DNA of 64,000 bases from an uncultured Ignavibacteria bacterium (GCA_964415885.1 CAYQCE010000009.1:3338-67337), one strand, 5' to 3'; counted from the first letter of the stretch, positions 4,388 to 53,400 are shown. Program-made: numbers and translations. Notes: generated by a model not told the origin, from the sequence alone.

Positions 4388-4397
4388 CTGAATATCA

Positions 4398-5189: not shown

Positions 5190-5199
5190 GGGTAATCGT

Positions 5200-5691
5200 T
5201 TGGCGCGGAAGGTGGTCATTTTCGTCGGGCTTCTGCTCGCGATCATAGTATACCAGACGCTGATTGCCGATCTGATCACGCTTGGCACAGCGCGCCCCGA
5301 CCTGATTATAGTGCTCATAGTGTGGCTTACTTTGACGCGCAATCTTATGTGGGGAGTGGCATTCGCATTCGCCGCCGGTATTCTTGAGGATTCCCACTCT
5401 CCCCATTTTCTCGGTCTCGGCGCTTTTCTGAAGCTCGGAGCGGCAGTGAGCGTTCATTTTCTCTCGCACAGGGTCAGAACGGAAGGCCTTTTCGTGCGTA
5501 TAATCATGGTTATCGGTGTGGTGATAGCGCATGACATTCTATACTTCCTTGTCGTCTATGCGTTCGATCCAGAGCTCGAGATAATTGCGCTCCTGAATAC
5601 AATTATACCGAGCGCGATATATACATCGTTTATTGCGGCGTTCGTTTTGTACATGTCTGAAAGGAAACTGACAATCACCTTGGAATCGTGA
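5200..5691 (+). CDS. mreD: Rod shape-determining protein MreD (small polytopic membrane protein)
   Basis: 163-aa hydrophobic multi-TM protein lying between mreC and mrdA. Assigned on position and hydropathy, since MreD is poorly conserved. Confidence 0.6.
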   Translation: MARKVVIFVGLLLAIIVYQTLIADLITLGTARPDLIIVLIVWLTLTRNLMWGVAFAFAAGILEDSHSPHFLGLGAFLKLGAAVSVHFLSHRVRTEGLFVRIIMVIGVVIAHDILYFLVVYAFDPELEIIALLNTIIPSAIYTSFIAAFVLYMSERKLTITLES

Positions 5692-7547
5692 TGGAAGGGC
5701 TTAATTCAAGATCATTAAGGGCTAATATCCTTGCCGGCTTCTTCGTGTTGCTGGTCGTTCTGCTGATAGGGAAGATGTTCTACATGCAGACGTTCCAGTA
5801 CGGCAACTACTTCGAGATATCCGAGGAGAACCGGATCAGGATAGTCCCACAGATAGCGGTTCGCGGCAAAATACTTGACCGGTTTGGCAAGCTGATCGTG
5901 GACAATCGTCCATCTTACGTGGTTGCGGCCGTGCCCAACGAGGTTACCGATGTCAGGGTTGCATCCTCCAACCTCTCCGATCTTTTGGGGATATCTGTCG
6001 AGCGGATCGAGAGCAAGATCCGACAAAGTCGATTACGGAGGCATCAGCCGGTAAGACTGAAACGTGACGCGCCTTTCGAGACAGTTTGCAGGATTGAAGA
6101 GGCTGCCAATCTTTACCCCGGAGTTGTCCTGCAGCTCAACCAATCGAGAAACTACCCTGAGGATGGGTCTGCTGCACATCTGCTGGGGTACCTATCCGAG
6201 GTGACAGAAGAGGAACTGGACAAGTATCGCTCGAAGGGGCTTCACTCCGGATCGCTGATCGGGCGAAAGGGCGTTGAGAGAGAATATGATGATTTCCTTC
6301 GGGGCATAGACGGCACCCGCTTTCTTGAGGTATCGGCGGAGGGGCGGATAATAGGACCTCTCGAAACACGCGACCCTGTGGAGCCGGTACCGGGATACTC
6401 GCTGAAACTCGGCCTCGACTACGATCTTCAACAGTTCGGTGAGTCGCTATTCGTCGCGGATACTCTGACAGGAGCGGCCGTGGCGCTTGATCCGAATAAT
6501 GGCCACGTTCTTGCGTTTGTTTCGGAACCGACATTCGACGCCAACCTGTTTACCGGTCCCCTGTCGCCGGAGGACTGGAAGAGCCTCTCCACCGACGGGC
6601 GTCACCCGCTGCTCAATCGTTGCATACAGGCGACCTACCCGCCCGGGTCAATTTACAAGCTTATCGTAGCCGGTGCCGCACTCGAATCAAAAACCGCAAC
6701 GCCGAACACGAAGTACCTGTCTTGCACGGGTGGTTATCGCTACGGCAATCGAATATTCAAGTGCCATAAGCTCTCCGGGCACGGTGTGCTGACTATGATT
6801 GACGCTATCGCTGCCTCCTGCGACGTTTACTTCTATCAGCTCGGCAAAGAGATGGGCCTGAAGCACTGGGCTGATTATTCGCGTGCCTGCGGTTTCGGCA
6901 CACCAACCGGCATAGACCTGGATGACGAAGCCGCCGGGCTGGTGCCGGATAAGCAGTACTACGACAGGAGGCACGGGGAGGGCCGATGGCCGTCATCACT
7001 GATTCTGAACCTGTCGATCGGCCAGGGTGAGCTTCTGGTTACGCCGCTACAGATGGCGCAGTTCTATGCTGCGCTGGCAAATGGCGGAACGCTGTACAAG
7101 CCGAAAGTGCTCTACAGCCTTGTCACGCCCGAGGGCGAGATTCACCGTGATCCGGAAGTCGCCGGGGAGCTTCCATTTTCACCATCGACAATAGCGCTGC
7201 TCGATTCTGCAGCGACGGATGTTGTCTACGGCGAGTTGGGCACCGCGTGGCGAGCGAGGGTAGATGGCACGACAGTCTGCGGCAAAACCGGCACCGCTCA
7301 GAATTCTCTTGGAGATGGTAACGAGCACGCGTGGTTCTGTGCGTATGCGCCGCGTGAGAATCCGAAAATCGCTATAGCGTGCATCGTCGAGACCGCCGGT
7401 CATGGTGGGACTGTTGCGGCTCCGATTGTCGGCAAGATGATAGAGAGATATCTGAAGAATATCGGTGTGATAAAGGACAGTATTCCGATGCCGCTGGAGC
7501 AGTTCATGGCGCAGGAGGACGAGGTGGATGATGACGGTGAACTTTAA
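5688..7547 (+). CDS. mrdA: Penicillin-binding protein 2 (peptidoglycan D,D-transpeptidase)
   Basis: N-terminal TM segment, PBP dimerisation domain and a transpeptidase domain with SxxK-type (…ATYPPGSIYKL…) and KTGT (…CGKTGTAQ…) motifs. GTGA/ATG start overlaps the mreD stop. Confidence 0.9.
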   Translation: MMEGLNSRSLRANILAGFFVLLVVLLIGKMFYMQTFQYGNYFEISEENRIRIVPQIAVRGKILDRFGKLIVDNRPSYVVAAVPNEVTDVRVASSNLSDLLGISVERIESKIRQSRLRRHQPVRLKRDAPFETVCRIEEAANLYPGVVLQLNQSRNYPEDGSAAHLLGYLSEVTEEELDKYRSKGLHSGSLIGRKGVEREYDDFLRGIDGTRFLEVSAEGRIIGPLETRDPVEPVPGYSLKLGLDYDLQQFGESLFVADTLTGAAVALDPNNGHVLAFVSEPTFDANLFTGPLSPEDWKSLSTDGRHPLLNRCIQATYPPGSIYKLIVAGAALESKTATPNTKYLSCTGGYRYGNRIFKCHKLSGHGVLTMIDAIAASCDVYFYQLGKEMGLKHWADYSRACGFGTPTGIDLDDEAAGLVPDKQYYDRRHGEGRWPSSLILNLSIGQGELLVTPLQMAQFYAALANGGTLYKPKVLYSLVTPEGEIHRDPEVAGELPFSPSTIALLDSAATDVVYGELGTAWRARVDGTTVCGKTGTAQNSLGDGNEHAWFCAYAPRENPKIAIACIVETAGHGGTVAAPIVGKMIERYLKNIGVIKDSIPMPLEQFMAQEDEVDDDGEL

Positions 7548-38493: not shown

Positions 38494-41400
38494 ATGAGAG
38501 GGAAGCTACTGTTATCCGCACTATTCGTGATGCTGATGTTGCTTTCAACATCGGTATTCGCAGCCGGCAATCTGCCGGATTCGCTCACAACCAAATTGGC
38601 GCTCAACGAATCAAACCTCCAGACTCTGCTCGATGATTTAGGGTACGATATCGATGTCGACGAGGACGAGCTCGGCACCGAGGTTTTCTGTGCCCTACCG
38701 GGCCAGAATCTCGCAACTATTATTCTCGAGGTTGCCGGTTCGGCATCGAGCGCGAGTTCAGGGTGGTATGTAGCAGGCGATAGCAGCTCGCTAAACGAGC
38801 TCTTTACCGGTGCTGCCGGTCCCGGTGACTCGGTTTCGTTTGCGATCGGGTCAGGGGATTCTGTCGGGTTCTATCTCGATGCCAGAGACTACGGGAGCCA
38901 GACCGATCTCTGGTTTACCGAGAACTGGATGAACGACGACGGTTACGATCATGCATGGGTCTTTGCTACCGGCGTCCCGCATGAGTACCTTATCGCCTGG
39001 GAAGATCTGGTCGACGGCGGTGACGAGGATCACAATGATCTCGTAATCAAGATTCGGTTCGCAAATCAGGTTCCGACTGTCACACTACCCGACGATTTCA
39101 CGGAATCTCAGTGTACACCAGCCGATATTTGCTTTGATGTCGACGCCGCCGATGCGAATTGCGAAGGCGATACTATAACACTCGAGATGGTTTCGGGATA
39201 CGGCTCCTTCACCACCGTGACGGACCAGGCCTCGATCTCGACCAGTCATTGTTTCACACCGACCGGCTCGGGTACGTACGAGTTTATCTTCAAGGTCACA
39301 GATGTTGTTGGCGACGAAGGCTTTGACACGCTCACCGTAACGGTTGCCCAGGATGATGAGCCACCGGTGGCAATATGCCCATCGGATATTGTCGTCGACA
39401 ACGATCCGGGCGAATGCGGCGCGATTGTCAGCTTCACAGTCGATGGTACAGACAACTGCGCTGGGGTAACGACGACAGCCACGCCAGCTTCCGGTTCGAG
39501 CTTCCCGATCGGAACGACGCAGGTGGAAGTTGTAGCGACTGATGCGGCAGGAAACGCAGATACCTGCAACTTCGATGTTACAGTGAATGATACAGAAGCT
39601 CCGGTCGCAGACTGCCCGGCGGACATTACGGTCGACAACGATCCGGGCGAATGCGGCGCGATTGTCAGCTTCACAGTCGATGGTACAGACAACTGCGCTG
39701 GGGTAACGACGACAGCCACGCCAGCTTCCGGTTCGAGCTTCCCGATCGGAACGACGCAGGTGGAAGTTGTAGCGACTGATGCGGCAGGAAACGCCGATAC
39801 CTGCAACTTCGATGTCACAGTGCTCGAGACAGAGCCTCCGGTTCTGACCTGCCCGACCGATATCATCGTGGCGAATGATCCGGGTCAGTGTGGCGCGGTA
39901 GTGACATTTGATCCAACAGCAACGGAGAATTGCGGCAGCGCGACTATCACTGCAAATCCGGCCAGCGGTTCTGTTTTCCCGATCGGGATCACCACTGTTG
40001 AGGTAATCGCTACCGATGGTTCCGGAAACGCGGATACGTGCTACTTCGATGTCACAGTAAATGACACCGAAGCTCCCGTTGCGGAATGCCCATCCGACAT
40101 TTCGATCGGCAACGATCCGGGCGAATGCGGCGCGGTCGTAGACTTCACTCCGACGGCGAACGATAACTGCGCCGGTGTGACGGTTTCATCGACACCCGCG
40201 AGCGGTTCGTTCTTCGATGTCGGCACGACAACGGTTGAGGTTATAGCCTTTGATGCCGCCGGTAATGCCGATACTTGCTACTTCGATGTTACAGTGCAGG
40301 ACCTCGAAGATCCAATTCTGCAGTGCTCCGGTACTATCGAAGTTGACAATGATCCCGGCGAATGCGGTGCGATCGTAAATTTCACCTCGACGGTCACTGA
40401 CAACTGCCCGGGTGCTACGGTTACCTGCGATCCGGCTTCCGGTTCGTTCTTCGATGTCGGCACGACAACGGTGAATTGTACGGCTATCGATGCAGCAGGG
40501 AATGAATCAGTCTGTTCATTCGCTGTCATAGTCAATGACACCGAGAATCCGATGATTGCATGTCCTCCGGATGTGCAGCTCGATTGCGGTGATCCGACCG
40601 ATCCCGCAAACACCGGCGAGGCCACAGCAACCGACAATTGCGATACAGATTTAGACATTACATATACCGACGTTCAGGTCGATAACGTGATAACGAGGAC
40701 CTGGACAGCTACGGACGATGAGGGCAACAACGCCTCATGCGATCAGACTATAACGCTCGGCGACGGCACGCCGCCGGTCTGTTCCGTGCCTAACGATACC
40801 ACGATATTCCAGTGCGACTTCGCAGAGGTTCAGTTGCCGGTTTCGGCAACTCATGATGCCACCTGCGAGGTTATTAGCGGTCCTGGCGTGATCTCCGGCG
40901 GCTACTGGGTCTACACGCCGACATCAGAGGGTACGGTCAATGTCACCGTCCGCTGCACCGATGAGTGCGATTATTTCTGCGAGGCGAGCTTCTCCGTGAC
41001 CTTCGATCTGAATGCCGCTCCAGTTTGCAGCACTCCTCCAGCCGAGGATTTCTTCGTCTGCGAAGATACGACGTTTAACCTGGAATTCCTGAGCGAGGAC
41101 GAGGACGGCAATCTTGCCGGCTGTACAATGGTCTCAGGTCCGGGGACTTTCGACCCGGTAACCAATGTGTGGACATTCACAACCAGCGGCACCGGTACTT
41201 ACGCGGCGACTTTCGAGTGCGTGGATGAGTGCGGCGCCACCTGCACGGGAGAGCTCGCGGTGAATGTCACCGTGAATTCAGCGCCCGTTTGCAGTGTGCC
41301 GAACGACACTACTGTGTTCCAGTGTTCACCTGCTCAGGTCGCTTTCCCGTTCAGTGTAACTGACACCGATGGTAACATTGTCGACAGTGCAATCGTCTCC

Positions 41401-44088
41401 GGTCCGGGGGCGCTCGTGGACGGCAACTGGGTATTCACTCCCTTAGCGGCTGATACGTTTAGCGTGACATTACGCTTTGAAGATGAATGCGGCGCATTCT
41501 GTGAGGAGACATTTAACGTGTACTTCGAGATGAATGTTGCGCCGGTTTGCGATCTTCCTGCCTCCGATGAGTTCTTCGTCTGCGGCGACACTACATTCAG
41601 CTTCCCGGTATCCGCCACCGATGCCGATGACAACCTGTCCGGCTGCACGCTGGTATCAGGCGACGGCACGCTCGATCAGGGTAACTGGACATTTACCACG
41701 AGCGGTCCGGGTGTCTATTCAGCCGAATTCCTCTGTGAGGATGAGTGCGGGGAGACATGCGGCGGGACAGTTGAGGTCACCGTAAATCAGAATACCGCAC
41801 CGAGCTGCGAGTTTCCGGGCGATACGGCCATCTTCCTTTGCGAGTCGCAGGAAGTATGCCTCCCGGTTTCCGGTTCCGATCCGGACGATAATCTCGTGAG
41901 TTGCGAGGTGGTCAATGACAAGGGCGGTATTGAAAATGGCGAGTGGTGCTACACTCCGACACAGGACGAGGTCGTTGAGGTCACTGTTCGCTGCACCGAT
42001 GAGTGTGGAGCGTACTGCGAGTCTGACTTCGCAATCACATTCGACATTAATGAGGAGCCCGTCTGCGACATACCGGACGGCGGCGAGTTCTTCGCCTGCT
42101 CGGATACTACGTTCAGCTTCCAGATCGGCGCCAGCGATCCGGACGGCAACCTGAGCGGGTGTACGAAGATATCCGGCCCGGGAACCTACGATGGCACGAC
42201 CTGGACATTCACGACCAGCGGAAGCGGCCAGTATATCGGTGATTTCGAGTGTACCGATGAGTGCGGACTGACGTGCAGCGGCTCGATAGTTGTCGACTTC
42301 ACGCTCAACTCCGCACCGGTCTGCGATCTTCCGAGCAGCCAGATGATAGGACAGTGCGAGCCGATTCCGGTTGCGCTGCCGGTTGCTGCTACGGACGTCG
42401 ATGACAATCTCGCATCATGCCAGGTGGTCAGCGGTCCGGGTACGATTCAGAACGGTCTGTGGCAGTACACACCGACCGGTTCCGAGACTGTCAACGTTAC
42501 GGTTCGTTGCACAGATGAGTGCGGTGCCTACTGTGAGGATAGTTTCGAGATCACGATAGACATCGGTCAGGAATACTGCGTACCACCGCTTTTGACCATT
42601 GAGAAGACGCACGGTGCGATTCAGGGTCGAATAGATACACTCAAGATAACAATGGAAAACAGCCAGCTTCAGATGGGCGGGTTCGACTTCCTGATCGCCT
42701 ACGACGCCTCGGCCCTGACGGTTTCGGACGTTTTGCCGGGTCAGTTGCTCGTTGATTGCGGATGGGAGTACTTCACATACCGTCACGGCCCGTTCGGCCA
42801 GTGTGACGGGCCATGCCCGAGCGGATTTCTCCGCATAGTGGCGATGGCCGAGCTCAATGACGGTCCGAACCATCCGGATTGTTATGGTCCGAGCACGACC
42901 GATCCAAGCGAGCTGGTTACGATACTCTTCTATGTCACCAACGATAGAACATATGAATGTCAGTATGCTCCGGTTGAGTGGTTCTGGTTCGACTGCGGCG
43001 ACAACTCGATCTCCAATGTCGAGGGTACTGTGCTCTATGTCGATAAGATCGTCTACCGCTTCGAGGGCGATGTCTACTGGGATGAGGAAGACAACGTCGA
43101 CTATCCCGAGTCCGAGCGTATTCCGCATGTCGGTGCGCCGGATGCCTGCCTTGAGCCGCTGCCCGGAAAGCCTGGGGCAATACGGTTCCTCGAGTTCAAG
43201 AACGGCGGTGTGGATATCATCTGTGCGGATTCGATCGATGCTCGCGGTGATGTTAACCTCAACGAGGTCGCGAATGAGATCGGTGATGCTGTTCTCTTCA
43301 CTAACTACTTCATCTACGGTATGGCCGTATTCACGCTGAATGTGGAGGGCCAGATTGCGGCATCGGATGTGAATGCCGATGGTCGTCCGCTCACCGTTGG
43401 TGATCTGGTCTACCTCGTCAGGATAGTCACCGGCGATGCCGCCCCGTACTCGAAAATCACCGGATTCGAGCACGAGGCCGTGCTCGGTATGAACGAGACC
43501 GCGACCGGGCTTGATCTCTCGCTAAGCAGTGCAACCGATATCGGCGCTGTCTATCTTACCTTCGATGCACGTGATGCGACCGTTTCCGACGTTACTCTCA
43601 CGAGTGAACTCGGAGATATGAGCGTCAAGCATGGTGTTGTTGAAGGCGAGCTTCGCGTGCTGATCTTCGACATCGGCGAGGGCAGGATACGCTCCGGCAG
43701 CAGCGATATCCTGAACATAGTCGCCGAAGGCTCACTCGAGCTGATTGACTATGAAATAGTCGATTATTACGGCGCTGATGTTAGCGTCTCGCTGAAAAAC
43801 GAGATCGTACCGACAGACTTCAAGCTCGCGCAGAATTATCCTAACCCGTTCAATCCGGAAACGGAGATTTCGCTCTATCTGCCGGAGACTACCGACTGGT
43901 CGATAGCGATCTACAACATCGCCGGTCAGAAGGTAAAGACCTTCACCGGATTCAGTTCTGCGGGATCTGTCACCGTTCGCTGGTTCGGTCGGGATGACAA
44001 CGGAGCCGAGGTTGCCTCGGGTGTCTACTTCTACAAGGCGACTGCCGGCAATTACAGTGAAACGAAAAAGATGCTTCTGCTCAAGTAG
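38494..44088 (+). CDS. Giant secreted surface protein: DUF4114-like + HYR repeats + Cys-rich repeats + cohesin-dockerin-cohesin + T9SS C-terminal sorting domain
   Basis: AGGAG RBS and a signal peptide (MRGKLLLSALFVMLMLLSTSVFA). A DUF4114-like segment is present (…WMNDDGYDHAWVFATG…EDLVDGGDEDHNDLVIKI). 5-6 HYR-like repeats follow (CPxDIxVDNDPGECGAIVxFT…). Seven alternating Cys-rich ~87-aa repeats follow (APVCSVPNDTTxFQC…VRCTDECGAYCE…). Two cohesin-like modules (…LKITMENSQLQMGGFDFLIAYDASALTVSDV…) flank a dockerin-like segment (…SDVNADGRPLTVGDLVYLVRIVTG…). The C-terminus (…KLAQNYPNPFNPETEISLYLPE…IAIYNIAGQKVKTF…SGVYFYKATAGNYSETKKMLLLK) is a textbook Por/T9SS tail. Confidence 0.9.
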   Translation: MRGKLLLSALFVMLMLLSTSVFAAGNLPDSLTTKLALNESNLQTLLDDLGYDIDVDEDELGTEVFCALPGQNLATIILEVAGSASSASSGWYVAGDSSSLNELFTGAAGPGDSVSFAIGSGDSVGFYLDARDYGSQTDLWFTENWMNDDGYDHAWVFATGVPHEYLIAWEDLVDGGDEDHNDLVIKIRFANQVPTVTLPDDFTESQCTPADICFDVDAADANCEGDTITLEMVSGYGSFTTVTDQASISTSHCFTPTGSGTYEFIFKVTDVVGDEGFDTLTVTVAQDDEPPVAICPSDIVVDNDPGECGAIVSFTVDGTDNCAGVTTTATPASGSSFPIGTTQVEVVATDAAGNADTCNFDVTVNDTEAPVADCPADITVDNDPGECGAIVSFTVDGTDNCAGVTTTATPASGSSFPIGTTQVEVVATDAAGNADTCNFDVTVLETEPPVLTCPTDIIVANDPGQCGAVVTFDPTATENCGSATITANPASGSVFPIGITTVEVIATDGSGNADTCYFDVTVNDTEAPVAECPSDISIGNDPGECGAVVDFTPTANDNCAGVTVSSTPASGSFFDVGTTTVEVIAFDAAGNADTCYFDVTVQDLEDPILQCSGTIEVDNDPGECGAIVNFTSTVTDNCPGATVTCDPASGSFFDVGTTTVNCTAIDAAGNESVCSFAVIVNDTENPMIACPPDVQLDCGDPTDPANTGEATATDNCDTDLDITYTDVQVDNVITRTWTATDDEGNNASCDQTITLGDGTPPVCSVPNDTTIFQCDFAEVQLPVSATHDATCEVISGPGVISGGYWVYTPTSEGTVNVTVRCTDECDYFCEASFSVTFDLNAAPVCSTPPAEDFFVCEDTTFNLEFLSEDEDGNLAGCTMVSGPGTFDPVTNVWTFTTSGTGTYAATFECVDECGATCTGELAVNVTVNSAPVCSVPNDTTVFQCSPAQVAFPFSVTDTDGNIVDSAIVSGPGALVDGNWVFTPLAADTFSVTLRFEDECGAFCEETFNVYFEMNVAPVCDLPASDEFFVCGDTTFSFPVSATDADDNLSGCTLVSGDGTLDQGNWTFTTSGPGVYSAEFLCEDECGETCGGTVEVTVNQNTAPSCEFPGDTAIFLCESQEVCLPVSGSDPDDNLVSCEVVNDKGGIENGEWCYTPTQDEVVEVTVRCTDECGAYCESDFAITFDINEEPVCDIPDGGEFFACSDTTFSFQIGASDPDGNLSGCTKISGPGTYDGTTWTFTTSGSGQYIGDFECTDECGLTCSGSIVVDFTLNSAPVCDLPSSQMIGQCEPIPVALPVAATDVDDNLASCQVVSGPGTIQNGLWQYTPTGSETVNVTVRCTDECGAYCEDSFEITIDIGQEYCVPPLLTIEKTHGAIQGRIDTLKITMENSQLQMGGFDFLIAYDASALTVSDVLPGQLLVDCGWEYFTYRHGPFGQCDGPCPSGFLRIVAMAELNDGPNHPDCYGPSTTDPSELVTILFYVTNDRTYECQYAPVEWFWFDCGDNSISNVEGTVLYVDKIVYRFEGDVYWDEEDNVDYPESERIPHVGAPDACLEPLPGKPGAIRFLEFKNGGVDIICADSIDARGDVNLNEVANEIGDAVLFTNYFIYGMAVFTLNVEGQIAASDVNADGRPLTVGDLVYLVRIVTGDAAPYSKITGFEHEAVLGMNETATGLDLSLSSATDIGAVYLTFDARDATVSDVTLTSELGDMSVKHGVVEGELRVLIFDIGEGRIRSGSSDILNIVAEGSLELIDYEIVDYYGADVSVSLKNEIVPTDFKLAQNYPNPFNPETEISLYLPETTDWSIAIYNIAGQKVKTFTGFSSAGSVTVRWFGRDDNGAEVASGVYFYKATAGNYSETKKMLLLK
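39394..39815 (+). repeat. Near-identical tandem duplication (period 237 bp) inside the HYR region of the giant gene
   Basis: Bases 39394-39578 and 39631-39815 are identical except for 2 substitutions (about 185 of 237 bp). They encode two identical 79-aa HYR units (DNDPGECGAIVSFTVDGTDNCAGVTTTATPASGSSFPIGTTQVEVVATDAAGNADTCNFDVTV). Confidence 0.85.
40771..42570 (+). repeat. Seven tandem Cys-rich ~87-aa repeats (two alternating subtypes) within the giant gene
   Basis: Repeats begin (S/A)APVC(S/D)(V/L)P… and end …C(T/E)DECGA(Y/F/T)CE…(V/I)(N/G). Protein-level identity is about 40-60% and DNA has diverged. Confidence 0.8.
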
Positions 44089-44158: not shown

Positions 44159-44212
44159 CGACAAATCTCTTGCGGGATCATTCCGACGGATTATATTGTA
44201 GCCCGAGAAAAT

Positions 44213-44296
44213 GCCGAAGTGGTGAAACAGGTAGACACGCTGTGTTCAGGGCGCAGTGTCCTTGCGGGCGTGGGGGTTCGAATCCCCCCTTCGGCA
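44213..44296 (+). tRNA. tRNA-Leu (anticodon CAG)
   Basis: Acceptor stem GCCGAAG/CTTCGGC, anticodon stem CTGTG/CGCAG with loop TTCAGGG (anticodon CAG), a long variable arm, and T-arm GGGGGTTCGAATCCCCC. Confidence 0.8.
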
Positions 44297-44383
44297 TTTG
44301 AAACTCCCCCAGTAAAGGCAATCATTGCATTTGACTTGTACCGAGAAGACCATTGATGTTGGACTGTTCGACCAGAGAGATAG

Positions 44384-46108
44384 TTAGTTTGATTCGCTGA
44401 ATTTCGCGAGTCTTTTGATGAAGTTACGGAGCTTGTCGGCACCGACAGCTTTTCCGAGTTCCTTTGCAATTGCTCTGGAGCGCCGCACGTGTGTCTGAAG
44501 CGTGTCTTTCATGCGGATTTCAGCGATCGTGACTCCCGGCATCGCCAGTGCCTTCGCCACCTCTGCAGTATAGTCGCTGGAGAGGAGCATGTAGTTGGCT
44601 CCGATGCCTTTCGCGAACTGTTCGAAGTCGACCTGTGATGTCTTTGTGGCGTGCCCTCTGCCGTAGCGCGAGAGCTGCTGGATGCGGATCTGTCCGAGAT
44701 TGTTGTCATTGACGAGCAGAACAAGCAACTGGAGGTTCTCTCGGACTGCGGTCGTCAGCTCCGTACCGGTCATGAGCATTCCGCCGTCACCAACCACGAG
44801 TACGACCGGAATATCCGGCCGGGCTGCCTTCGCGCCGACGGCCGCCGGTGCACCGTATCCCATCGACTGAAAGTCAGACGGTGCGAGCATACCGCGTGCG
44901 CACTCGACACTGAACCGCGTTCGCACGAGAAGCTGATGGAGACCGGAGTCTGTGACAACGACGCATTCCTTCGGTAGCATCTTTCGCAATACGTCTACGA
45001 CATGCGGTTCCTTTTCACCACCGCCGCTTTTCGGTACTGGCAGGAGCTTGAATGCCCGTTCTCGATCCAGCTCATGCTGTAACTTGATGTCTTTCATTTC
45101 AGCATCAGTCCATGCCGATTTCAAGTCGGTACCGGTAATCGCCTGGCTCAGAGCTTGTGCAAACGACGGGATGTCTGCTTCGATGGCGATCGATGCGGGG
45201 TAGTTGGCGTTGAGTACATTCTTTGATGCATCAATATGGATGAGCTTTTCCTGTGGCAGGTTCAAGCGATAACCTGCGGAGCCATTGTGAGAGAACTTGC
45301 ATCCGAGAGCGAGTACGAGATCGCTCTTGCCGAGTACACGGTTGACGGTCTTGATTCCCCATGAGCCGAAGTCGGAGCAGACGGCCAATGGATGGCTTTC
45401 GGGTACGATTCCTCGACCGGAACAGGTGGCAATAACTGGCGCATTCAATTTCTCTGCGATTTCGACGATCTTCTTCGCGCATCCGGCTGCCCCTTGACCA
45501 AGGAAGAGCGCAACTCGGGATGAACTTTCGATTGATGCTATAACTTGCTCGATTTGCTCTCTGAGGACCTTCGACTCCTGTATGAGGCCATCACGCGGTT
45601 CGCTCCGATTCGCGGGTTCCTCCACAATACGATTGTCTATTTCGACTATCACCGGCCCAGGTTCGCCGGATAGCGCGGCGTAACATGCCTCGGCTACATT
45701 CTGTTCGGCATCCTTCGCATTGTCCAGCCGTATGTATGCCTTGGAGATACTCCTGGAGATCGCCTCGTGATCGATTTCCTGCAGCCCGAACGCCATTTTC
45801 TGTTCGTCGGGCGCCTTGACGAGCAGGTGCACGAATGCGGCGGAGTCGTGGTATGCTTCGGCTATTCCCGTGGATGCAAGCGTGAACCCGGGACCCTGTA
45901 TTGTCGCGACAGCGCCAAGTTTCCCGGACGAGCGATAGTAGCCATTTGCAGCCATTGTTGCGCCGATCTCTGTTGTGGTCAGCACGGTGCGGATCCCGGA
46001 TTTTCGTACGCATTCGAAGAATGATACTGACTGTGTGCCGGGGATGCCGAAGACAATCTCGATTCCCGCACGCTTCAGGCACTCACAGATAAAATCACCG
46101 TTTGTCAT
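44384..46108 (-). CDS. Thiamine-diphosphate-dependent enzyme (acetolactate-synthase-like carboligase/decarboxylase family)
   Basis: N-terminal Pyr domain (…IVFGIPGTQSV…), a central domain and a C-terminal ThDP-binding motif (…VVGDGGMLMTGTELTTAVRENLQLLVLLVNDNNLGQI…). 574 aa. Confidence 0.85.
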   Translation of the reverse strand: MTNGDFICECLKRAGIEIVFGIPGTQSVSFFECVRKSGIRTVLTTTEIGATMAANGYYRSSGKLGAVATIQGPGFTLASTGIAEAYHDSAAFVHLLVKAPDEQKMAFGLQEIDHEAISRSISKAYIRLDNAKDAEQNVAEACYAALSGEPGPVIVEIDNRIVEEPANRSEPRDGLIQESKVLREQIEQVIASIESSSRVALFLGQGAAGCAKKIVEIAEKLNAPVIATCSGRGIVPESHPLAVCSDFGSWGIKTVNRVLGKSDLVLALGCKFSHNGSAGYRLNLPQEKLIHIDASKNVLNANYPASIAIEADIPSFAQALSQAITGTDLKSAWTDAEMKDIKLQHELDRERAFKLLPVPKSGGGEKEPHVVDVLRKMLPKECVVVTDSGLHQLLVRTRFSVECARGMLAPSDFQSMGYGAPAAVGAKAARPDIPVVLVVGDGGMLMTGTELTTAVRENLQLLVLLVNDNNLGQIRIQQLSRYGRGHATKTSQVDFEQFAKGIGANYMLLSSDYTAEVAKALAMPGVTIAEIRMKDTLQTHVRRSRAIAKELGKAVGADKLRNFIKRLAKFSESN

Positions 46109-46133
46109 TTGCTCATCCGTTGTTGGTGAGATG

Positions 46134-47183
46134 TCACCGACGGCGAATACCGGCTTTTCTCAGAACCGCAGTTCCTCGAGACGAAACCCGTTCGAGTATT
46201 CGACTCGATGCGCATTTCAGCCCGTTTTCTTTGCTGACAACGAGATTCGTCACGAGCCTGCCGCCCAGTTGGCTTTTGAACTTTGCTACCGGATTGAGAG
46301 CCGCGTCCGTGAGATCATTAGCCTTGTAGCCGAGCTCGGAGAGCGACTGAAACACGCGCCACCGGAGACAGGGGTTCACGCCGTGCTTCATGTACTCATC
46401 GCTCGCAGCAGCGCTCACCGTGTGAGTTACGGGATGCTCTCCGAGGAGAACGAGTTGTGTTGCTACCGACTTGCCGTTGTTCGTGCGCAGGTGATACAGC
46501 CTGCAGAGGTCGTTTGCCTTCAGAGTGTCGAAGTACTTCCTGAAGTCCTTCTTCGGAAGATAAAGCGGAGCGCCCTTTCGCTCATGAATTTCCCTGTGGA
46601 GATCGAAGAAGCTATCGAAATCGTCATCCTCGCTGAACTCGAATTCTCCGGACTCGCACCGCCTCACGAGCCGCCGAAGATTGTGCGCGATCGTGGACCA
46701 GGTTTTGTCCAGGTCGTCGATGTCAACTTCGTAGCTGTATCCGAGGTCGATTTTCCAGCCTCGCGATGCGAAGACGCGGATATCATCGATAGTATGCCGG
46801 TTTCGGAATCGAATTCGATCATAGTGCTGTTGCGAGAGCGCCTCTTCGAGGGCATCCATGGCTTCAAGCGCGCGGGATGTCGCCTCCGATGGGTACTTCG
46901 TAGGATGATCCTGCAGCACGATCCCGTTGTAGTAGAGAAGCAGTCTGTTGGTGACTTCGTCGATTATGCCGCGCTTATGTTCATACAGTGCAATCCCGCC
47001 GAGCATCTCTTCGCCTTTGCAGGCGGCGAGCACTTTGAAATTTCCCCCGGTAACGCCGCAGAGCGCATCGAGATATTCGGTCCGGCTGTATACACTTCCG
47101 GCCGGAGAAGTAACTACCAGATTATTCCATTCGGGGAACTGCTCCTCGGACAGTATTTTCGTTTCGATCTTCTTCTTGCCCAT
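46134..47183 (-). CDS. FemAB-like / BioF2-like GNAT-fold acyl(aminoacyl)transferase (Acetyltransf_6-like)
   Basis: ~350 aa with the duplicated-GNAT FemAB-like layout (…YLDALCG…GGIALYEHKR…LLYYNGIV…; …GKSVATQLVLLGEHPVTHTVSAAASDEY…NPCLRWRVF…). Its start overlaps the ATP-grasp gene's stop (TAATG). Confidence 0.65.
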   Translation of the reverse strand: MGKKKIETKILSEEQFPEWNNLVVTSPAGSVYSRTEYLDALCGVTGGNFKVLAACKGEEMLGGIALYEHKRGIIDEVTNRLLLYYNGIVLQDHPTKYPSEATSRALEAMDALEEALSQQHYDRIRFRNRHTIDDIRVFASRGWKIDLGYSYEVDIDDLDKTWSTIAHNLRRLVRRCESGEFEFSEDDDFDSFFDLHREIHERKGAPLYLPKKDFRKYFDTLKANDLCRLYHLRTNNGKSVATQLVLLGEHPVTHTVSAAASDEYMKHGVNPCLRWRVFQSLSELGYKANDLTDAALNPVAKFKSQLGGRLVTNLVVSKENGLKCASSRILERVSSRGTAVLRKAGIRRR

Positions 47184-48517
47184 TAAAGCCTGACCTTACC
47201 GTGCGTTTCTGCCGATTCGTCCGACATTCCCAGCCTGTTCTTAACAGACCACATAATGCGCCTGGCTGTTCCGACGAGAGACGGCATTGGGTCCCTTAAT
47301 GACAGATTCGCCTTCTTTGCGGTAATCCAGGATCCAATCCAACTGCTCACACTCAGTTTCCCGCTTTTTACCATCTCCAGCCCGGCGAAGAGATCATAGT
47401 ACGGATAGACAAGACCGTGTCCAGTACGATAGTTGCCGACTGTCTCGACATCCCGTTCGAGCGCATCCTGATACGCCATCAGCGCCACAGGCACACGGCA
47501 AATCTCTGCGAACCAGATGTACCACCACGGGCGAACATTGACCTCGAGCAGCTTGAACTCGTTGTCTCGCGGGTCAAGCTTGAATTCGGCGGAGAAAATG
47601 CCCCGGTAGCTGGTTTTCTCAAGAAGCATCATAAGCGAGTCGTGTGCGGCCTGCACCTCCGAGATCGGCACACTTACAACGAAAGAACTGTTGCCGAAGT
47701 CCGGCGGATACATTCTGAGCCTGTGACGCGCGAACGACGCGCGACAGACTCCATGCCGGTCGACGAAACCATCGATGAAATAGTGATTTGAGGCTGGTCC
47801 GGGAATGTACTCCTGATAGACCGCCTCCATTCCGAGAGAGCTGACTCGATTGTATTTGTCGAGGGCGTCTTCGTACGACTTCAGTCGAAACGCCTTCACT
47901 CTGAATGTCTTGAAGAACTTCTCTGAATCTGTTGGCTTGAGGAATGAGTTGGTTATCCGGTCTCTTGCCACCGCATCGAGGTCTGATTTCTCGGAGAGAA
48001 TCAGTGTGGAAGGATGTGGTATTCCGAGCGAGACCATGAGCTCGGCAAGACTGGCCTTGTCCATGAGCTGCTTTACTACGCTCTCCTCCGGGAGGCTGAA
48101 TCTGTAGTTTGATCGAAGTTCAGTCGGAAGGGCGGACAATGCCCGTGTCCAGCTATCGCTGCATGGCATGATCACGAGGCGTCTAAATGGAAGCGATTTC
48201 AGGTAGCCGGCGAGATCGCCGTCAGGACACGTTTCCTTTCTTTCGACCGGTACCCAGTTGAACCACCTTGAGGCACGGACGAAGCCGGACTGCCGTCCGG
48301 CTGCGTAGCATTTGATACCGTGTGATGCAAGAGACCGCATTACCCCGAGCGCTGTGATACCGGTACCCAGTATCAGAACCGGAGGATTTGTATCTTCCGA
48401 TTTGGCAGCCCCTGAACTATGTCCCAAGCTCGGATTCACGCAAGCCTCGTAACGCACCGAAGTGAAGTATCCGAAATGGATTGATGCCACAGACCGGACA
48501 GTGCTCAAGCATAGCAA
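47183..48517 (-). CDS. ATP-grasp family ligase (D-aspartate-ligase / PylC-like carboxylate-amine ligase); start codon uncertain
   Basis: Pre-ATP-grasp Gly-rich N-terminus (…PPVLILGTGITALGVMRSLASHGIKCYAA…), a central B-loop region and the C-terminal …EFKLLEVNVRPWWY… Mg/ATP motif. The TTG at 48517 is the longest-ORF start. An in-frame GTG/TTG roughly 20-25 codons downstream is equally plausible. Confidence 0.65.
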   Translation of the reverse strand: MLCLSTVRSVASIHFGYFTSVRYEACVNPSLGHSSGAAKSEDTNPPVLILGTGITALGVMRSLASHGIKCYAAGRQSGFVRASRWFNWVPVERKETCPDGDLAGYLKSLPFRRLVIMPCSDSWTRALSALPTELRSNYRFSLPEESVVKQLMDKASLAELMVSLGIPHPSTLILSEKSDLDAVARDRITNSFLKPTDSEKFFKTFRVKAFRLKSYEDALDKYNRVSSLGMEAVYQEYIPGPASNHYFIDGFVDRHGVCRASFARHRLRMYPPDFGNSSFVVSVPISEVQAAHDSLMMLLEKTSYRGIFSAEFKLDPRDNEFKLLEVNVRPWWYIWFAEICRVPVALMAYQDALERDVETVGNYRTGHGLVYPYYDLFAGLEMVKSGKLSVSSWIGSWITAKKANLSLRDPMPSLVGTARRIMWSVKNRLGMSDESAETHGKVRL

Positions 48518-48777
48518 TCATGACTGTAGGTCCCAAAGGACCACAAGATAGGTCATCGCTCTGCCGGTCGCAAGCTTTTACTCTTTCGTCGGCCGTTGGG
48601 GTAAGTTCCTCCACACGAAGTTCATGTGGAGTCACGCGATGCTGCCAAATGTGGTGAAAACACTCCCGTATAGGTCCCGAGTGTGTTGTGTTGGCTTGGT
48701 CGTATTCGACGGCACAAAGACTCTCTGAGATGAGGCGTTTCCGCCTCATCCGCCGGGTCGTTCATCAGGATGTTTAC

Positions 48778-49263
48778 CTACCACTCGTATGCGTAAGCCG
48801 GGGTAGTGTTGAGCTTCAAACCGACAGTATCGGCGCCGTCAACAACAGGCTGAACCTGATAGATGATGAACCTCTCTCCGCCGTTTACCCACCCGCCGGA
48901 TATGGCGGTTTTCGGATTGTACATGACCCAGTTACCGGTTGCACGCCATGACCAGCTTCCATCGGGCGTGTTCACGGTTGTTATCGGGTCGTTGCCGCCC
49001 TCGTAGTTGGTTGGTGTGTTTGAGAGCAGGTCAAACGGATTCTGGAGCTGAATCGATTCACCCTCGACGAATTGCTTGGCGACATAGATCGACATTGCAG
49101 ATTCGAGGTTGGAGACCATGGATGCCACCGAGGCTTTTTCGGCCTCTTCGGTAACTTTGAAGAGCTTGGGAATCGCAACCGCTGCGAGGATGGCCAGCAC
49201 GACAATGATAACCACCAGTTCGATCAAAGTGAATCCGCGACTGCTTTTGAGCATTCTTGACAT
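48778..49263 (-). CDS. Type IV pilin / pseudopilin (prepilin-type N-terminal cleavage/methylation domain)
   Basis: MSRMLKSSRG|FTLIELVVIIVVLAILAAVAIP… is the class III signal peptide with Gly-1, Phe+1 and Glu+5. 161 aa. No pilB/pilC/pilD/pilM-Q genes lie within the window. Confidence 0.8.
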   Translation of the reverse strand: MSRMLKSSRGFTLIELVVIIVVLAILAAVAIPKLFKVTEEAEKASVASMVSNLESAMSIYVAKQFVEGESIQLQNPFDLLSNTPTNYEGGNDPITTVNTPDGSWSWRATGNWVMYNPKTAISGGWVNGGERFIIYQVQPVVDGADTVGLKLNTTPAYAYEW

Positions 49264-49742
49264 AGTTCTTCCTCCCGCAGTATATTGTCCGGGTTCGCTA
49301 CACTTCTCTTGGGGGCAAGGCTTTGCCGGTCTTGCACACTTCTAATATTATGTTTCGGAACGAAAGAGGAAAAATTGAGCCGGGAGCGAATCTCGGATCA
49401 AAAAAGTCCTGTTGAAGTTTCGAACAAAAAATAACTCCGGGTCTGGATAACCAAACCCGGAGCCCATGAAACGCACGAAAAGAAGGATCGCTCAGCGATA
49501 ACGCCTTGCATAACGTTAAACGTTCTGAGCGATACTTAAGTTTCAAAAAAGTAAGGATTTTGTCAAGATTTTTCTCAAGTGAATTCGGCGTGGGGTGCCT
49601 GCATTGTTGGAGAAACAGCTTGCAAGCCTCGGAATACATTGTTAGATTTGATGTTACAGTTGAAACTGAGTAGTTCGTTGCTGATGAGACAGGCAATGTT
49701 ATCCACAATACACTTGTTGAACCTGAAAGGTTGCGTTGAGAT

Positions 49743-50255
49743 ATGGCTGACACCAAAGAGGCGATCTCGAAAGGACTGCTGACCGCCATGAAGGCCGAGC
49801 GTGAAGGGCACAGCTTCTACATGATGGCTGCGAACGCGACGGACGATCCCAAGGGGAAAGAGGTGTTCGCGCAGCTCGCAAAGGATGAGCACGACCATTT
49901 GATCTACCTCAAGAACCAGTACGAGTCCCTGCAGAAGACCGGCAAGGTCGATCCAAGCCTGAAACTGGGTGAGAAAACCCGTTACGGCGGACCCGCGCCG
50001 ATCTTTTCGGAGAATTTCAAGAGCCGCATCAAGGATCGGCACTACGAAATGAGCGCGCTTTCGATCGGGATCCAGCTCGAACTGGATGCTATCAAGCATT
50101 ACAAGTCGCAGGCAGAGAGCTTTGATGATCCGACCGTAAAATCGTTCTACACGGATTTGGCCGACTGGGAGAAAGAGCACTATGACGCTCTCAACAATCA
50201 GTATGATTCATTGAAAGAGGATTACTGGTCAGATGCAGGTTTCAGTCCGTTCTAA
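49743..50255 (+). CDS. Ferritin-like diiron protein (rubrerythrin-family, no rubredoxin domain)
   Basis: Two ExxH-containing helix pairs (…AEREGHSFY…KDEHDHLIYL… and …LELDAIKHY…WEKEHYDAL…) are typical of the rubrerythrin/ferritin-like fold. Confidence 0.65.
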   Translation: MADTKEAISKGLLTAMKAEREGHSFYMMAANATDDPKGKEVFAQLAKDEHDHLIYLKNQYESLQKTGKVDPSLKLGEKTRYGGPAPIFSENFKSRIKDRHYEMSALSIGIQLELDAIKHYKSQAESFDDPTVKSFYTDLADWEKEHYDALNNQYDSLKEDYWSDAGFSPF

Positions 50256-50652
50256 CGATGCAGCAAAGACCGACCGGCCGCGCAGCGGGATGTGTCTCGT
50301 GGAGGGCTGTTGGAGGACCAAGCTGCGCCAGGCTCTATCGTAACTTCAGGAAGTGTGCGGTGTCCTGCGTCTTTAGGCTTGACGCAAGGCACTGAGAGTT
50401 CTGGCTCCTACAAAGACATTCGTTCCTTTTCCAACAAAGGTGTTCTGAACAAAGTGAACTATTCCGTGTTCAATTAACAATCAGATCGATTGCAGTGCCG
50501 GCTTTCAAGCGAAAGGACACAGTTTCACGTGATCGTCCGTACTGATCGAGATTACTGGCTGCGAATTACTGACTCTGCAGTCAGCATATTCCGGGACGGA
50601 CGCATCGCTACCCGGCTGAAAACAGGCCAGTGTCCGCTTGTTCGGAGAGGGT

Positions 50653-53400
50653 ATGATGTATATGATTGAGAAGAAGCATACCGACAAGTCACCCGAAGAT
50701 AACTGGCACTCTCTAGAAATAGAGACTATACTTGAGCAGCTGGAAACCAGCCCTGAAGGCCTAAGCGGGGAAGATGCTTCTGAGCGCCTGAGTACCCATG
50801 GGCCGAATACACTTCCGGCCAAGGAACCCCCTACCATTTGGGCCGTCCTGCTCAATCAGATCCTCAATCCGCTGATTTTCATCCTCTTGGCCGCTGCCGT
50901 GGCATCCCTGGCAATAGGCGAGCTTTCCGATGCCATCTTCATCCTGGCCGTCATCGTCCTAAACAGCGCGCTCGGTGCCTACCAGGAGTTCAATGCGGAG
51001 AAAAGCGCGGCCGCCCTCCAGCGAATCATGAAGTTATGGGCAAGAGTGCGGCGCGACAACAAGGAAGCCGAGATCGAGTCGAAAGAAGTGGTTCCCGGCG
51101 ATATCGTTCTGCTTGAGTCAGGCCGAAAAGTGCCCGCCGACCTCCGTTTGCTGCAGGCTCACGGACTTGCGGCCGACGAGAGCTTCCTGACCGGCGAATC
51201 CATGGCTGCTGAAAAACATACAGACCGTTTGCCTCAGGATACGGTCGTGAGCGACCGAAACAATATGGTCTTCGCCGGGTCGACGATCACTTCGGGTAGA
51301 GGTTCCGGGGTCGTTGTAGGCACCGGAACTCAGACTCAGGTTGGTATCATAGCTGAAAAAGTCTCTCATTCGGAAGGCGGCAAGCCTCCCCTCGTTTTGC
51401 GGATGGAGAAGTTCGTAAAGCAGATCAGTATCCTGATCCTCGTTATCAGCGCGGGACTGTCGCTGCTATTGGGATTACAGGGAGAGAGTGCCACCGCTAT
51501 TTTCTTCTTCGTGGTCGCTATGGCCGTCTCGGCTATCCCCGAGGGAATGCCGGTTGCTATGACAGTGGCTCTTTCGATTGCTACGAAACGTATGTCCGAG
51601 CGGAACGTGATCGTGCGCAGGCTAACAGCCGTGGAAAGCCTTGGAAGCTGTACCGTTATAGCCAGCGACAAGACCGGAACATTGACCGTCAATCAGCAGA
51701 CGGCGCGTATGATCATTCTCCCGGACGGGCAGACCTTTACAGCTTCAGGGGAGGGTTACAACGGCGAGGGGGAAGTCTCTGGCGGTGACAGTACCCGGTT
51801 GACTGAACCTGCACGGGAGCGGCTGGAAAGACTGGCCCAAATCGCAGTTCTGGCAAACGAGGCATCGCTGGTCAGGGAGGACGAAGAGTGGAGGCATAGG
51901 GGGGATGCGATGGATGTCGCATTCCTCGCATTTGCTTTTAAGCTCGGTCTGAATCCGGCGGAAGTGAGGGATCAGTTCAAAGTTGTGGATGAGATACCCT
52001 ACGAGTCGGAGCAGAAGTTCTCAGCGACTTTCTATGAAGATCGAGACACGCGGTACGTCGCCGCCAAGGGTGCGGTGGAGAGAATTCTGGACTTCTGCAC
52101 TCAGATGCACCAAGACGGAGACCTTGCAGACCTCGACAGAGAGGTCGTAGAGCGTCAGGAAACTGAAATGGCGGAGAAGGGATTGCGCGTCCTTGCTGTA
52201 GCCGGCGGGGAACTCTCCGCAACTGACGTCGATGAGGATTCAACAGGATCGGCATTATCCGGTCTCGTCTTGCACGGTCTCGTGGGATTCATCGACCCGC
52301 TTCGAGCGGAAGCGAGGGAGGCCGTTGAAAACTGCAGGAGAGCGGGCATCAAAGTCATGATGATTACGGGAGACCACCCCTCCACTGCCGGAGCTATCGC
52401 GGAAGAACTCTCTCTGTCAGACGGTAATGAGCCGGTTGTGACCGGCCATGATTTGAGTAAGGCCGGCAGTTCGGACAGCCCGGAATTCGAAGAGAAGGTA
52501 ATGTCGACACATGTGTTCGCACGGGTAGCACCCGCACAGAAGCTTGAGATTGTCGGGGTACTGATTCGAAATGGCGAGTTTGTTGCCGTGACCGGGGATG
52601 GCGTCAACGACGCTCCCGCACTTCGAAGAGCCAATATCGGAGTGGCGATGGGTTCCGGAACGGATGTGGCCAAGGAAGTCGGCTCGATGATCGTTACCGA
52701 TGACAATTTCGCCTCCATAGTCGCCGGTGTTGAGGAGGGACGATTCGCCTATGACAACGTGCGCAAAGTGATCTACCTGCTGATTTCCACCGGTGCTGCT
52801 GAGGTCCTGATGTTTATGGCGGCGATTATAACCGGCTTGAAGATTCCATTGGTGGCTGTCCAGCTCCTGTGGCTCAACCTTGTTACGAACGGAATTCAGG
52901 ATGTGGCACTCGCATTCGAGGGAGGAGAGCCAGGCGCTATGAAACGTAAACCTCGAAGACCTGATGAGAAAATCTTCGATTCACAGATGGTCAGTCAGAC
53001 AGCCGTCTCGGGCATGGTGATCGGGTCTTTGGCTTTTGGGTTCTGGTACTGGCTGATGGAGATTGAGAAAGTGGAGAGCCTGGCCTCAGCCCGTAACAGC
53101 GTCCTGCTCCTGATGGTACTGTTGCAGAACGTGCACGTCTTTAATTGCAGATCGGAGTCGGTATCCGCCTTCAGGGTTCCTATCAACCGCAATTATATAC
53201 TTCTATTTGGAGTGGTCATAGCGCAGGGTATCCATATTCTCAGCATGCGCCTACCGTTCATGCAGTCCATTCTTGGCGTGGAAACCGTCACGTTATCCCA
53301 GTGGTTTATCGCGCTGGGTCTGGCGCTAACAGTTCTGTTTGCAATGGAGATATTCAAATGGTTGGCCAGGCGCGGGCATTTACCAATCGAACCCAGGTGA
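50653..53400 (+). CDS. P-type cation-transporting ATPase (type II, Ca2+/Mg2+-ATPase-like)
   Basis: Contains DKTGTLT (phosphorylation site), TGES, …MITGDHPSTA…, …VAVTGDGVNDAPAL… and 10 predicted TM helices. Start is set at the first ATG after GGAGAGGG. The second or third ATG (50656/50662) is also possible. Confidence 0.9.
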   Translation: MMYMIEKKHTDKSPEDNWHSLEIETILEQLETSPEGLSGEDASERLSTHGPNTLPAKEPPTIWAVLLNQILNPLIFILLAAAVASLAIGELSDAIFILAVIVLNSALGAYQEFNAEKSAAALQRIMKLWARVRRDNKEAEIESKEVVPGDIVLLESGRKVPADLRLLQAHGLAADESFLTGESMAAEKHTDRLPQDTVVSDRNNMVFAGSTITSGRGSGVVVGTGTQTQVGIIAEKVSHSEGGKPPLVLRMEKFVKQISILILVISAGLSLLLGLQGESATAIFFFVVAMAVSAIPEGMPVAMTVALSIATKRMSERNVIVRRLTAVESLGSCTVIASDKTGTLTVNQQTARMIILPDGQTFTASGEGYNGEGEVSGGDSTRLTEPARERLERLAQIAVLANEASLVREDEEWRHRGDAMDVAFLAFAFKLGLNPAEVRDQFKVVDEIPYESEQKFSATFYEDRDTRYVAAKGAVERILDFCTQMHQDGDLADLDREVVERQETEMAEKGLRVLAVAGGELSATDVDEDSTGSALSGLVLHGLVGFIDPLRAEAREAVENCRRAGIKVMMITGDHPSTAGAIAEELSLSDGNEPVVTGHDLSKAGSSDSPEFEEKVMSTHVFARVAPAQKLEIVGVLIRNGEFVAVTGDGVNDAPALRRANIGVAMGSGTDVAKEVGSMIVTDDNFASIVAGVEEGRFAYDNVRKVIYLLISTGAAEVLMFMAAIITGLKIPLVAVQLLWLNLVTNGIQDVALAFEGGEPGAMKRKPRRPDEKIFDSQMVSQTAVSGMVIGSLAFGFWYWLMEIEKVESLASARNSVLLLMVLLQNVHVFNCRSESVSAFRVPINRNYILLFGVVIAQGIHILSMRLPFMQSILGVETVTLSQWFIALGLALTVLFAMEIFKWLARRGHLPIEPR

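Follow-up and report, generated by a model that had tools for sequence, protein, structure and literature searches.

A conserved gene cassette encoding an ATP-grasp ligase, a FemX-fold transferase and a ThDP-dependent enzyme in uncultured bacteria, with a possible role in envelope glycan modification

We analysed a stretch of 64,000 nucleotides of DNA from an uncultured Ignavibacteria bacterium (GCA_964415885.1, CAYQCE010000009.1:3338-67337), hereafter called the window, in which three consecutive minus-strand genes encode an ATP-grasp carboxylate-amine ligase, a FemX-fold transferase and a thiamine diphosphate (ThDP)-dependent enzyme. A prepilin-type pilin gene lies upstream on the same strand. 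A preliminary description of this DNA, made from the sequence alone, had reported these four genes with the same family assignments and a tight coupling of the three enzyme genes, and both points were borne out. The stop codon of the ATP-grasp gene and the start codon of the transferase gene share the pentamer TAATG, and the sequence leaves a gap of 25 nt between the transferase and ThDP genes. The assignments agree with the three ThDP domains, with the PF13480 match and FemX fold of the transferase, with the fold of the ATP-grasp protein and with the PF07963 and TIGR02532 matches of the pilin. Only the start of the ATP-grasp gene was moved: judged on sequence, it is most likely the GTG at 48457 and not the TTG at 48517 of the open reading frame (ORF) 47183-48517, since an 89%-identical homologue, P0001, starts at the former. 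The spacer between the pilin gene and this GTG is 320 nt long.

The three enzyme genes form a conserved unit. One genome per GTDB species was scanned (185,579 species genomes) for relatives of the ATP-grasp protein, which 407 loci were found to encode. The best 80 were analysed (loci are designated L followed by a number); all come from metagenome-assembled genomes, they are not phylogenetically independent, and they belong to Gemmatimonadota, Zixibacteria, Acidobacteriota, Ignavibacteriales, Proteobacteria, Actinomycetota, Planctomycetota, Bdellovibrionales, Cytophagales and Calditrichaceae. When 85 loci were searched by tblastn with the four window proteins, 73 GTDB loci were long enough for the arrangement to be judged. 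In 54 of these, from at least eight phyla, the ATP-grasp, transferase and ThDP genes run one after the other in that order on a single strand; seven had the ATP-grasp gene followed by the ThDP gene and lacked the transferase gene, three had the ThDP gene elsewhere in the locus, and nine had the ATP-grasp gene alone. The trio is also found together in Dokdonella soli (L086/L087; assemblies GCA_042655465.1 and GCA_039523175.1), where it occupies 8304-12765 of L086, and in a related 3.5-Mb contig (L088); in both, the ATP-grasp gene points away from the transferase and ThDP genes. Other protein clusters reached 13 of the 80 loci at most, and the conserved unit therefore consists of exactly three genes, with the ATP-grasp and ThDP genes as its core. 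The best match of the window enzymes in a named genome was in Ignavibacteriales, and a tblastn search of plasmids returned only ATP-grasp proteins of about 25% identity, which is uninformative. We regard the trio as an autonomous, horizontally mobile cassette. It had been proposed that such a combination was not previously defined, and we came to the same view: there is no curated family model for the trio, and no description of combined ATP-grasp (or D-aspartate ligase), FemAB and ThDP enzyme classes in connection with polysaccharides was found in the searchable literature, whose full-text coverage is limited. Curated equivalog models recognise none of the three proteins, and the trio brings enzyme types that are familiar into a conserved combination not described before.

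Table 1. Features of the cassette and of its surroundings in the window. Positions are counted from the first nucleotide of the window.
Feature	Position	Strand	Remarks
ThDP-dependent enzyme gene, acetolactate-synthase superfamily, a distinct subfamily	44384..46108	-	574 aa; three ThDP Pfam domains
FemX-fold tandem-GNAT transferase gene (PF13480)	46134..47183	-	349 aa; TAATG overlap with the ATP-grasp gene
ATP-grasp carboxylate-amine ligase gene, cassette gene 1	47183..48457	-	GTG 48457 preferred as start, GTG 48439 as alternative
Putative cassette promoter	48545..48573	-	TTGCGA, 17-nt spacer, TATCTT; predicted
Hairpin	48729..48750	-	GATGAGGCG-GAAA-CGCCTCATC; 27 nt past the pilin stop codon
Prepilin-type pilin/pseudopilin gene	48778..49263	-	GFTLIEL motif; neighbour of the cassette, not a member
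ORF, probably spurious	49298-49789	-	no family match
Near-invariant non-coding element	49423-49566	-	upstream of the pilin gene
Rubrerythrin gene	49743-50255	+	divergent; in the region of ORF 49298-49789
P-type cation ATPase gene	50638-53400	+	flanked by the rubrerythrin gene and the ferredoxin/NuoF-like block
tRNA-Leu(CAG) gene	44212..44297	+	ARAGORN; convergent with the cassette at its downstream edge; kept in L002
Surface protein gene	38494-44088	+	1864 aa; convergent with the cassette

The first protein of the cassette has 1489 homologues, the best 120 of which all have E values of at most 1e-100. No Pfam match was obtained for the window protein even at E<=10, and its profile found no relative by sequence in the PDB. 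Some homologues carry PF15632 and many are named 'D-aspartate ligase' by JGI, an automatic and unverified label. An AlphaFold model built from 20 sequences (pLDDT 89.6) gave 537 PDB matches at E<=0.001, the top 50 being all ATP-grasp enzymes, and the matched folds include PurK, PurD, biotin carboxylase, Ddl and RizA. The residues K168, E210, E285 and E299/N301/R303 are invariant in the alignment of the 20 sequences, so that the protein combines the fold with the conserved lysine, glutamate and Mg-binding E-x-N residues of the superfamily. As modelled, the fold of the first enzyme is unambiguously that of an ATP-grasp protein.

The transferase matches PF13480 (Acetyltransf_6) with 50.5 bits. 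PF02388 (FemAB) was not matched by the window protein and was faint in the Dokdonella orthologue, and searches of the PDB by sequence, with the single sequence or with a profile, found nothing. The AlphaFold model of the transferase (pLDDT 91.6) has as its closest folds FemX of S. aureus (6snr), the tRNA-dependent synthases Sbb17/Sba18 (9wqw/9wqy) and FemX of W. viridescens (1xe4/1ne9), with Foldseek E values of 1e-13 to 3e-16, followed by MprF-type aminoacyl-phosphatidylglycerol synthases and tandem GNATs. The cassette protein shares with FemX/FemABX and Sba18/Sbb17 the tandem-GNAT fold (template-modelling scores of 0.66-0.69 on the query and of 0.82 on Sbb17/Sba18) and a conserved C-terminal F-K motif, F302-K303 in the window protein, whereas the sequence identity is only 12-15%. 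The structure of Sba18 with streptothrisamine is among the top matches, and this enzyme class is therefore able to aminoacylate amino sugars. By analogy, an amino sugar may likewise be the context in which the cassette transferase acts.

The preliminary description had brought the transferase close to the FemAB proteins of PEP-CTERM/exosortase loci. The protein was scored against TIGR03019 (pepcterm_femAB) and reached 37 bits for a cutoff of 260.35, when the positive control from L007 reached 341.7 bits, and this assignment was rejected. The two kinds of protein belong to the same Pfam family, PF13480, and the cassette recurs in XrtA-type exopolysaccharide (EPS) loci; however, the true TIGR03019 member of L007 sits alongside the cassette transferase in that locus, and the two are therefore distinct paralogues. 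L007 thus provides a case of two different Fem-type paralogues coexisting in one locus.

The third protein carries the ThDP enzyme domains PF02776, PF00205 and PF02775, all above cutoff with E values of 1e-27 to 1e-31. Its best PDB match is the acetohydroxyacid synthase (AHAS) I of E. coli (E 4e-59), and in the alignment with AHAS the catalytic glutamate and the GDG...NN site for ThDP are intact. A conventional acetolactate synthase of branched-chain amino acid synthesis, with the other two genes as unrelated neighbours, would be in keeping with the closest NCBIfam and PDB matches, which are AHAS large subunits sharing the same three-domain architecture. The best NCBIfam model, TIGR00118, nevertheless scored 279 bits against a cutoff of 538, about half of what an equivalog requires, and all 25 of the equivalog or subfamily models listed were below cutoff. 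Furthermore, the AHAS motif G-x-R-F-D-D-R, whose arginine binds the acceptor 2-keto acid, is replaced by G-C-K-F-S-H-N-G in the window enzyme, and K-x-S-H-N-G is conserved across 51 cassette orthologues. No ORF resembling the regulatory small subunit IlvN/IlvH, nor any other ilv gene, adjoins the ThDP gene in the window, and 64 of the 73 judgeable loci show linkage of a ThDP gene with the ATP-grasp gene, including the three with the ThDP gene elsewhere in the locus. We consider a role in branched-chain amino acid synthesis extremely improbable. With K-x-S-H-N-G conserved in place of RFDDR, the protein represents a distinct subfamily, which probably uses another acceptor than AHAS does. AHAS-like enzymes of the YerE type, which branch sugars, can act on nucleotide sugars.

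The genes that surround the trio were then taken into account. A Pfam scan was applied to the two nearest genes on each side of the trio in 65 loci, using a codon-usage gene caller trained on each locus's own trio. The commonest neighbour family was Polysacc_deac_1, with 11 upstream and 3 downstream neighbours, of which seven also carry DUF3473. Next came glycosyltransferases of families GT1, GT2 and GT4, Wzx-type flippases, Bac_transf, Wzz/GNVR, DegT aminotransferases, dTDP-sugar isomerases and epimerases. In the 80 loci, BLAST clusters placed a glycan-type gene (RmlC-like, NAD epimerase, GT1/GT4, Wzc-like, UDP-GlcNAc 2-epimerase, DUF4910, class III aminotransferase or deacetylase) within 8 kb in 41 and a carbohydrate esterase family 4 (CE4) or CE4-like deacetylase in 22, often abutting the ATP-grasp gene, both figures coming from a simple ORF caller that produces spurious antisense ORFs in high-GC loci and from clusters Pfam-checked on representatives. 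In variants that lack the transferase, a divergent CE4-like gene lies directly upstream of the ATP-grasp gene (L009 3212-4387, L012 1-588, L075 332-1420, L078 3652-4644); its product matches Polysacc_deac_1 at E 0.002-0.015 only, and no PDB relative was found for it. Nucleotide-sugar genes stand beside the trio in the Zixibacteria loci L038 and L077.

Part of these neighbourhoods can be assigned to a known type of EPS locus. In L018 and L032 the deacetylases score 325 bits on TIGR03006, the model of the XrtA system deacetylase, and so exceed its cutoff of 276. In L007, a full EPS block of the XrtA/PEP-CTERM type lies immediately upstream of the trio (2303-7493) and comprises the TIGR03019 FemAB protein (342 bits, cutoff 260), a near-cutoff PEP_O_lig_1 protein, a flippase and two deacetylases; glycosyltransferases are also present around the trio. 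L007, L018 and L032 are genuine XrtA/PEP-CTERM EPS loci, and the seven loci with DUF3473 deacetylases are likely to be of this type also. The envelope and PEP-CTERM connection raised in the preliminary description thus gained support from the surroundings of the cassette, through the glycan genes and the three XrtA-type loci; it did not hold for the transferase itself, which is no TIGR03019 FemAB, nor for the window, where no glycan gene is adjacent.

A role in peptidoglycan precursor modification, in which the stem peptide would receive a side-chain or branch from a D-aspartate-ligase-like ATP-grasp enzyme acting with a FemX-like transferase, has to be weighed against these data. The FemX enzymes that are the closest folds of the transferase act in peptidoglycan synthesis, many ATP-grasp homologues bear the name of D-aspartate ligase, and some of the CE4 neighbours weakly resemble peptidoglycan deacetylases. 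The Enterococcus D-aspartate ligase Aslfm has the ATP-grasp fold in common with the cassette enzyme and is likewise paired with an enzyme of the Fem-type class. The JGI label is automatic and unverified, and the window protein has no Pfam match. The context of the cassette, moreover, is related to glycans and not to peptidoglycan: mur, fts or pbp genes do not recur beside the trio, and the cassette has a patchy distribution among the species scanned and often lies in EPS loci. We also know of no role for a ThDP enzyme in peptidoglycan synthesis. On this evidence, a function in peptidoglycan synthesis appears unlikely.

Our preferred proposal is that the cassette builds an amide-linked aminoacyl or acyl side-group on an amino-sugar-containing precursor of an envelope glycan, of the EPS, capsule or O-antigen type, a reading to which we give an even chance. 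The ThDP enzyme would decarboxylate a 2-oxo acid, and the activated aldehyde, used or released, would yield an unusual hydroxy-keto or acid building block. The ATP-grasp enzyme would activate a carboxylate as acyl-phosphate and join it to an amine, the likely candidate being a de-N-acetylated amino sugar because CE4 deacetylases are the commonest neighbours. The FemX-fold enzyme may then transfer an amino acid from an aminoacyl-tRNA donor to the free amine of the ATP-grasp product, as might be expected from its structural relatives. Among these, FemX aminoacylates a lysine in precursors of peptidoglycan, and the acceptor of Sba18 is the amino sugar in streptothrisamine. Since all three proteins appear, as judged by eye, to lack signal peptides, the precursor, linked to a nucleotide or a lipid, would be modified in the cytoplasm.

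Several observations weigh against this proposal. Within 8 kb, no glycan gene can be recognised in about half of the loci, the window among them; the nearest glycosyltransferases of the window are 42 kb away, and marker genes of the XrtA system were seen neither around the window trio nor in about half of the loci. The neighbourhood counts were obtained with a home-made gene caller and BLAST clusters on loci that are not independent. None of the three subfamilies has a characterised member, so that the substrates named above are guesses, and the role proposed for the ThDP enzyme is without direct support. Finally, the trio adjoins hybrid polyketide synthase (PKS)/non-ribosomal peptide synthetase (NRPS), Cupin_8/JmjC and thioesterase genes in Dokdonella soli (L086/L087, 1-8200) and in L088 (1-7600), an adjacency that fits a soluble metabolite equally well.

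The latter observation leads to another explanation, in which the trio makes a soluble natural product or metabolite. From a unit derived from a 2-oxo acid and from amino acids it would assemble a peptide-like compound, such as an antimetabolite, an osmolyte or a signal, with no link to glycans. Both the PKS/NRPS neighbours and the loci devoid of glycan genes are consistent with it. Clavulanic acid biosynthesis unites the same three enzyme classes, with CEAS as ThDP enzyme, Orf17 as ATP-grasp enzyme and Orf14 as tandem GNAT. Orf14 (2wpw) is among the fold matches of the transferase, and CEAS is likewise found among the PDB matches of the cassette proteins, both being weaker than FemX and AHAS, respectively. 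The rest of the clavulanic acid cluster, including the beta-lactam synthetase and clavaminate synthase, is however absent. More generally, a beta-lactam synthetase, an NRPS, a phosphoenolpyruvate mutase or any other core scaffold enzyme falls outside the conserved unit, and genes for transport, regulation or resistance show no consistent linkage to it. Glycan genes, and CE4 deacetylases especially, appear strongly over-represented as direct neighbours across phyla, in raw counts given without a chance expectation. A soluble product therefore seems somewhat unlikely to us, and the modification of an envelope glycan is retained as the preferred reading.

The pilin gene next to the cassette was considered separately. 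The protein passes PF07963 (N_methyl, 30 bits, cutoff 21.2) and TIGR02532 (20.8 bits, cutoff 16.3). It was rejected as GspG, TIGR01710 giving 43 bits for a cutoff of 88.85 over the N-terminal 53 residues only. It has 407 homologues; for the 120 listed, identity is 61-93% and the alignment spans 89-100% of the query. Those with names are almost all from Zixibacteria, of which the protein is probably the major pilin or pseudopilin, and by these named homologues the organism of the window is itself most likely a member of Zixibacteria. The gene is usually solitary and often divergent from a rubrerythrin gene. As had been noted earlier for the window, it stands without pilus assembly genes: PilB, PilC, PilM-Q, GspD, GspE and GspF were not found among the roughly 40 larger ORFs scanned.

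The preliminary description had suggested that the trio might modify this pilin, or make a moiety attached to it. The two lie side by side on the same strand in the window and in its closest relatives L002/L003, where rubrerythrin, pilin, trio, tRNA-Leu and the HYR/type IX secretion protein are all syntenic, and probably in a third close relative with the same arrangement. An enzyme with an ATP-grasp fold is also known to modify a pilus subunit post-translationally, namely the TupA-like CfmP acting on the fimbrial subunit FimA of Klebsiella (PMC12632600). CfmP is unrelated to the cassette enzyme, however: it belongs to another ATP-grasp family, is encoded by a single gene and acts on a chaperone-usher fimbria instead of a type IV pilin, and the comparison gains no support from synteny.

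In contrast to these points, the synteny check confined the co-location to the closest relatives. A six-frame scan of the 80 other trio loci, which include eight from Zixibacteria, and of the Dokdonella-type loci detected no prepilin motif. Conversely, the pilin gene stands alone, without the trio, in all four further Zixibacteria pilin loci (L090, L091, L092 and L093). L092 keeps the NuoF-like, ferredoxin and rubrerythrin genes, the non-coding element and the pilin gene of the window (63-82% amino-acid identity), and a different convergent gene follows the pilin directly, the trio being absent. The pilins of the window and L002 share 86% identity, far more than the enzymes do (60-71%).

The spacer between the pilin gene and the trio points in the same direction. 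The hairpin that follows the pilin gene in the window is GC-rich, with a stem of 9 bp. L002 has at the same site GCGCGG-CATCTGT-CCGCGC followed by TTTTTCTTT, a canonical intrinsic terminator that was read directly from the sequence and was not listed by the consensus scan. Further along the spacer, both hexamers of the promoter-like box are conserved between the window and L002 and its 17-nt spacer is not; the box scores 8 of 12 matches, below the threshold of the scan. Because of the hairpin or terminator after the pilin gene and of the conserved promoter-like box, the pilin gene and the trio are, on the sequence evidence, likely to be transcribed separately. We conclude with high confidence that the trio is independent of the pilin and regard modification of the pilin by the trio as very unlikely; that the pilin gene comes next upstream of the trio is a local accident of one Zixibacteria lineage. 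For pilus biology the outcome is negative, with no evidence of a new pilin modification. What stood of the preliminary description as a whole is thus the gene identities and the coupling of the three enzyme genes, with support for its envelope or EPS alternative, and what fell, by the synteny test that the description itself had named, is the connection with the pilin.

A non-coding element lies upstream of the pilin gene and is near-invariant between the window, L002 (8930-9058, plus strand) and L092 (3860-4006, plus strand), the flanking proteins being only 63-86% identical across these three genomes. It contains a TTGACA box, an internal hairpin and a terminator with a 14-bp stem and a T-run, and its RNA fold has an energy of -51.7 kcal/mol (z = -6.6). 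The element is absent from L090. An Rfam scan of the pilin region returned no family, the best hit being the sub-threshold L20_leader (21 bits, E 0.27). The element may be a small RNA or a leader/attenuator of the pilin gene.

The remainder of the window is ordinary chromosome, with MreC, PBP2, RodA, glycolysis, pyruvate dehydrogenase, a pyruvate:ferredoxin oxidoreductase (PFOR)/NuoEF-like block and a P-type ATPase. The latter is not found at that position in L002 and L092 and is therefore a lineage-specific insertion. Beyond the downstream edge of the cassette, the convergent surface protein has five HYR repeats, DUF4114, FlgD-Ig and a C-terminal sorting domain for type IX secretion. The tRNA-Leu(CAG) gene sits between the genes for the ThDP enzyme and the HYR protein, and no integrase was seen there; given that L092 lacks the trio, this tRNA gene may mark the boundary of an insertion or deletion.

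The cassette is present in several hundred species, almost all uncultured, from phyla that are dominant in soils and sediments, and sequence searches of the PDB turned up no solved relative for its ATP-grasp or transferase subfamily. Dokdonella soli is a named, presumably culturable species that carries the trio. As a more specific and tentative proposal, the cassette, widely spread among uncultured phyla of soil and sediment, could be a previously undescribed module for tailoring glycans, one that adds a new kind of peptide-like or branched acyl appendage to exopolysaccharides of the XrtA/PEP-CTERM type. Such a module would combine tRNA-dependent aminoacylation, amide ligation by an ATP-grasp enzyme and ThDP-dependent carbon-carbon chemistry. 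XrtA/PEP-CTERM loci have been linked to floc and biofilm formation. If the trio does decorate EPS, a tRNA-dependent and a ThDP-dependent step would be added to EPS chemistry, and a recurrent unknown of the XrtA/PEP-CTERM loci would be given a function.

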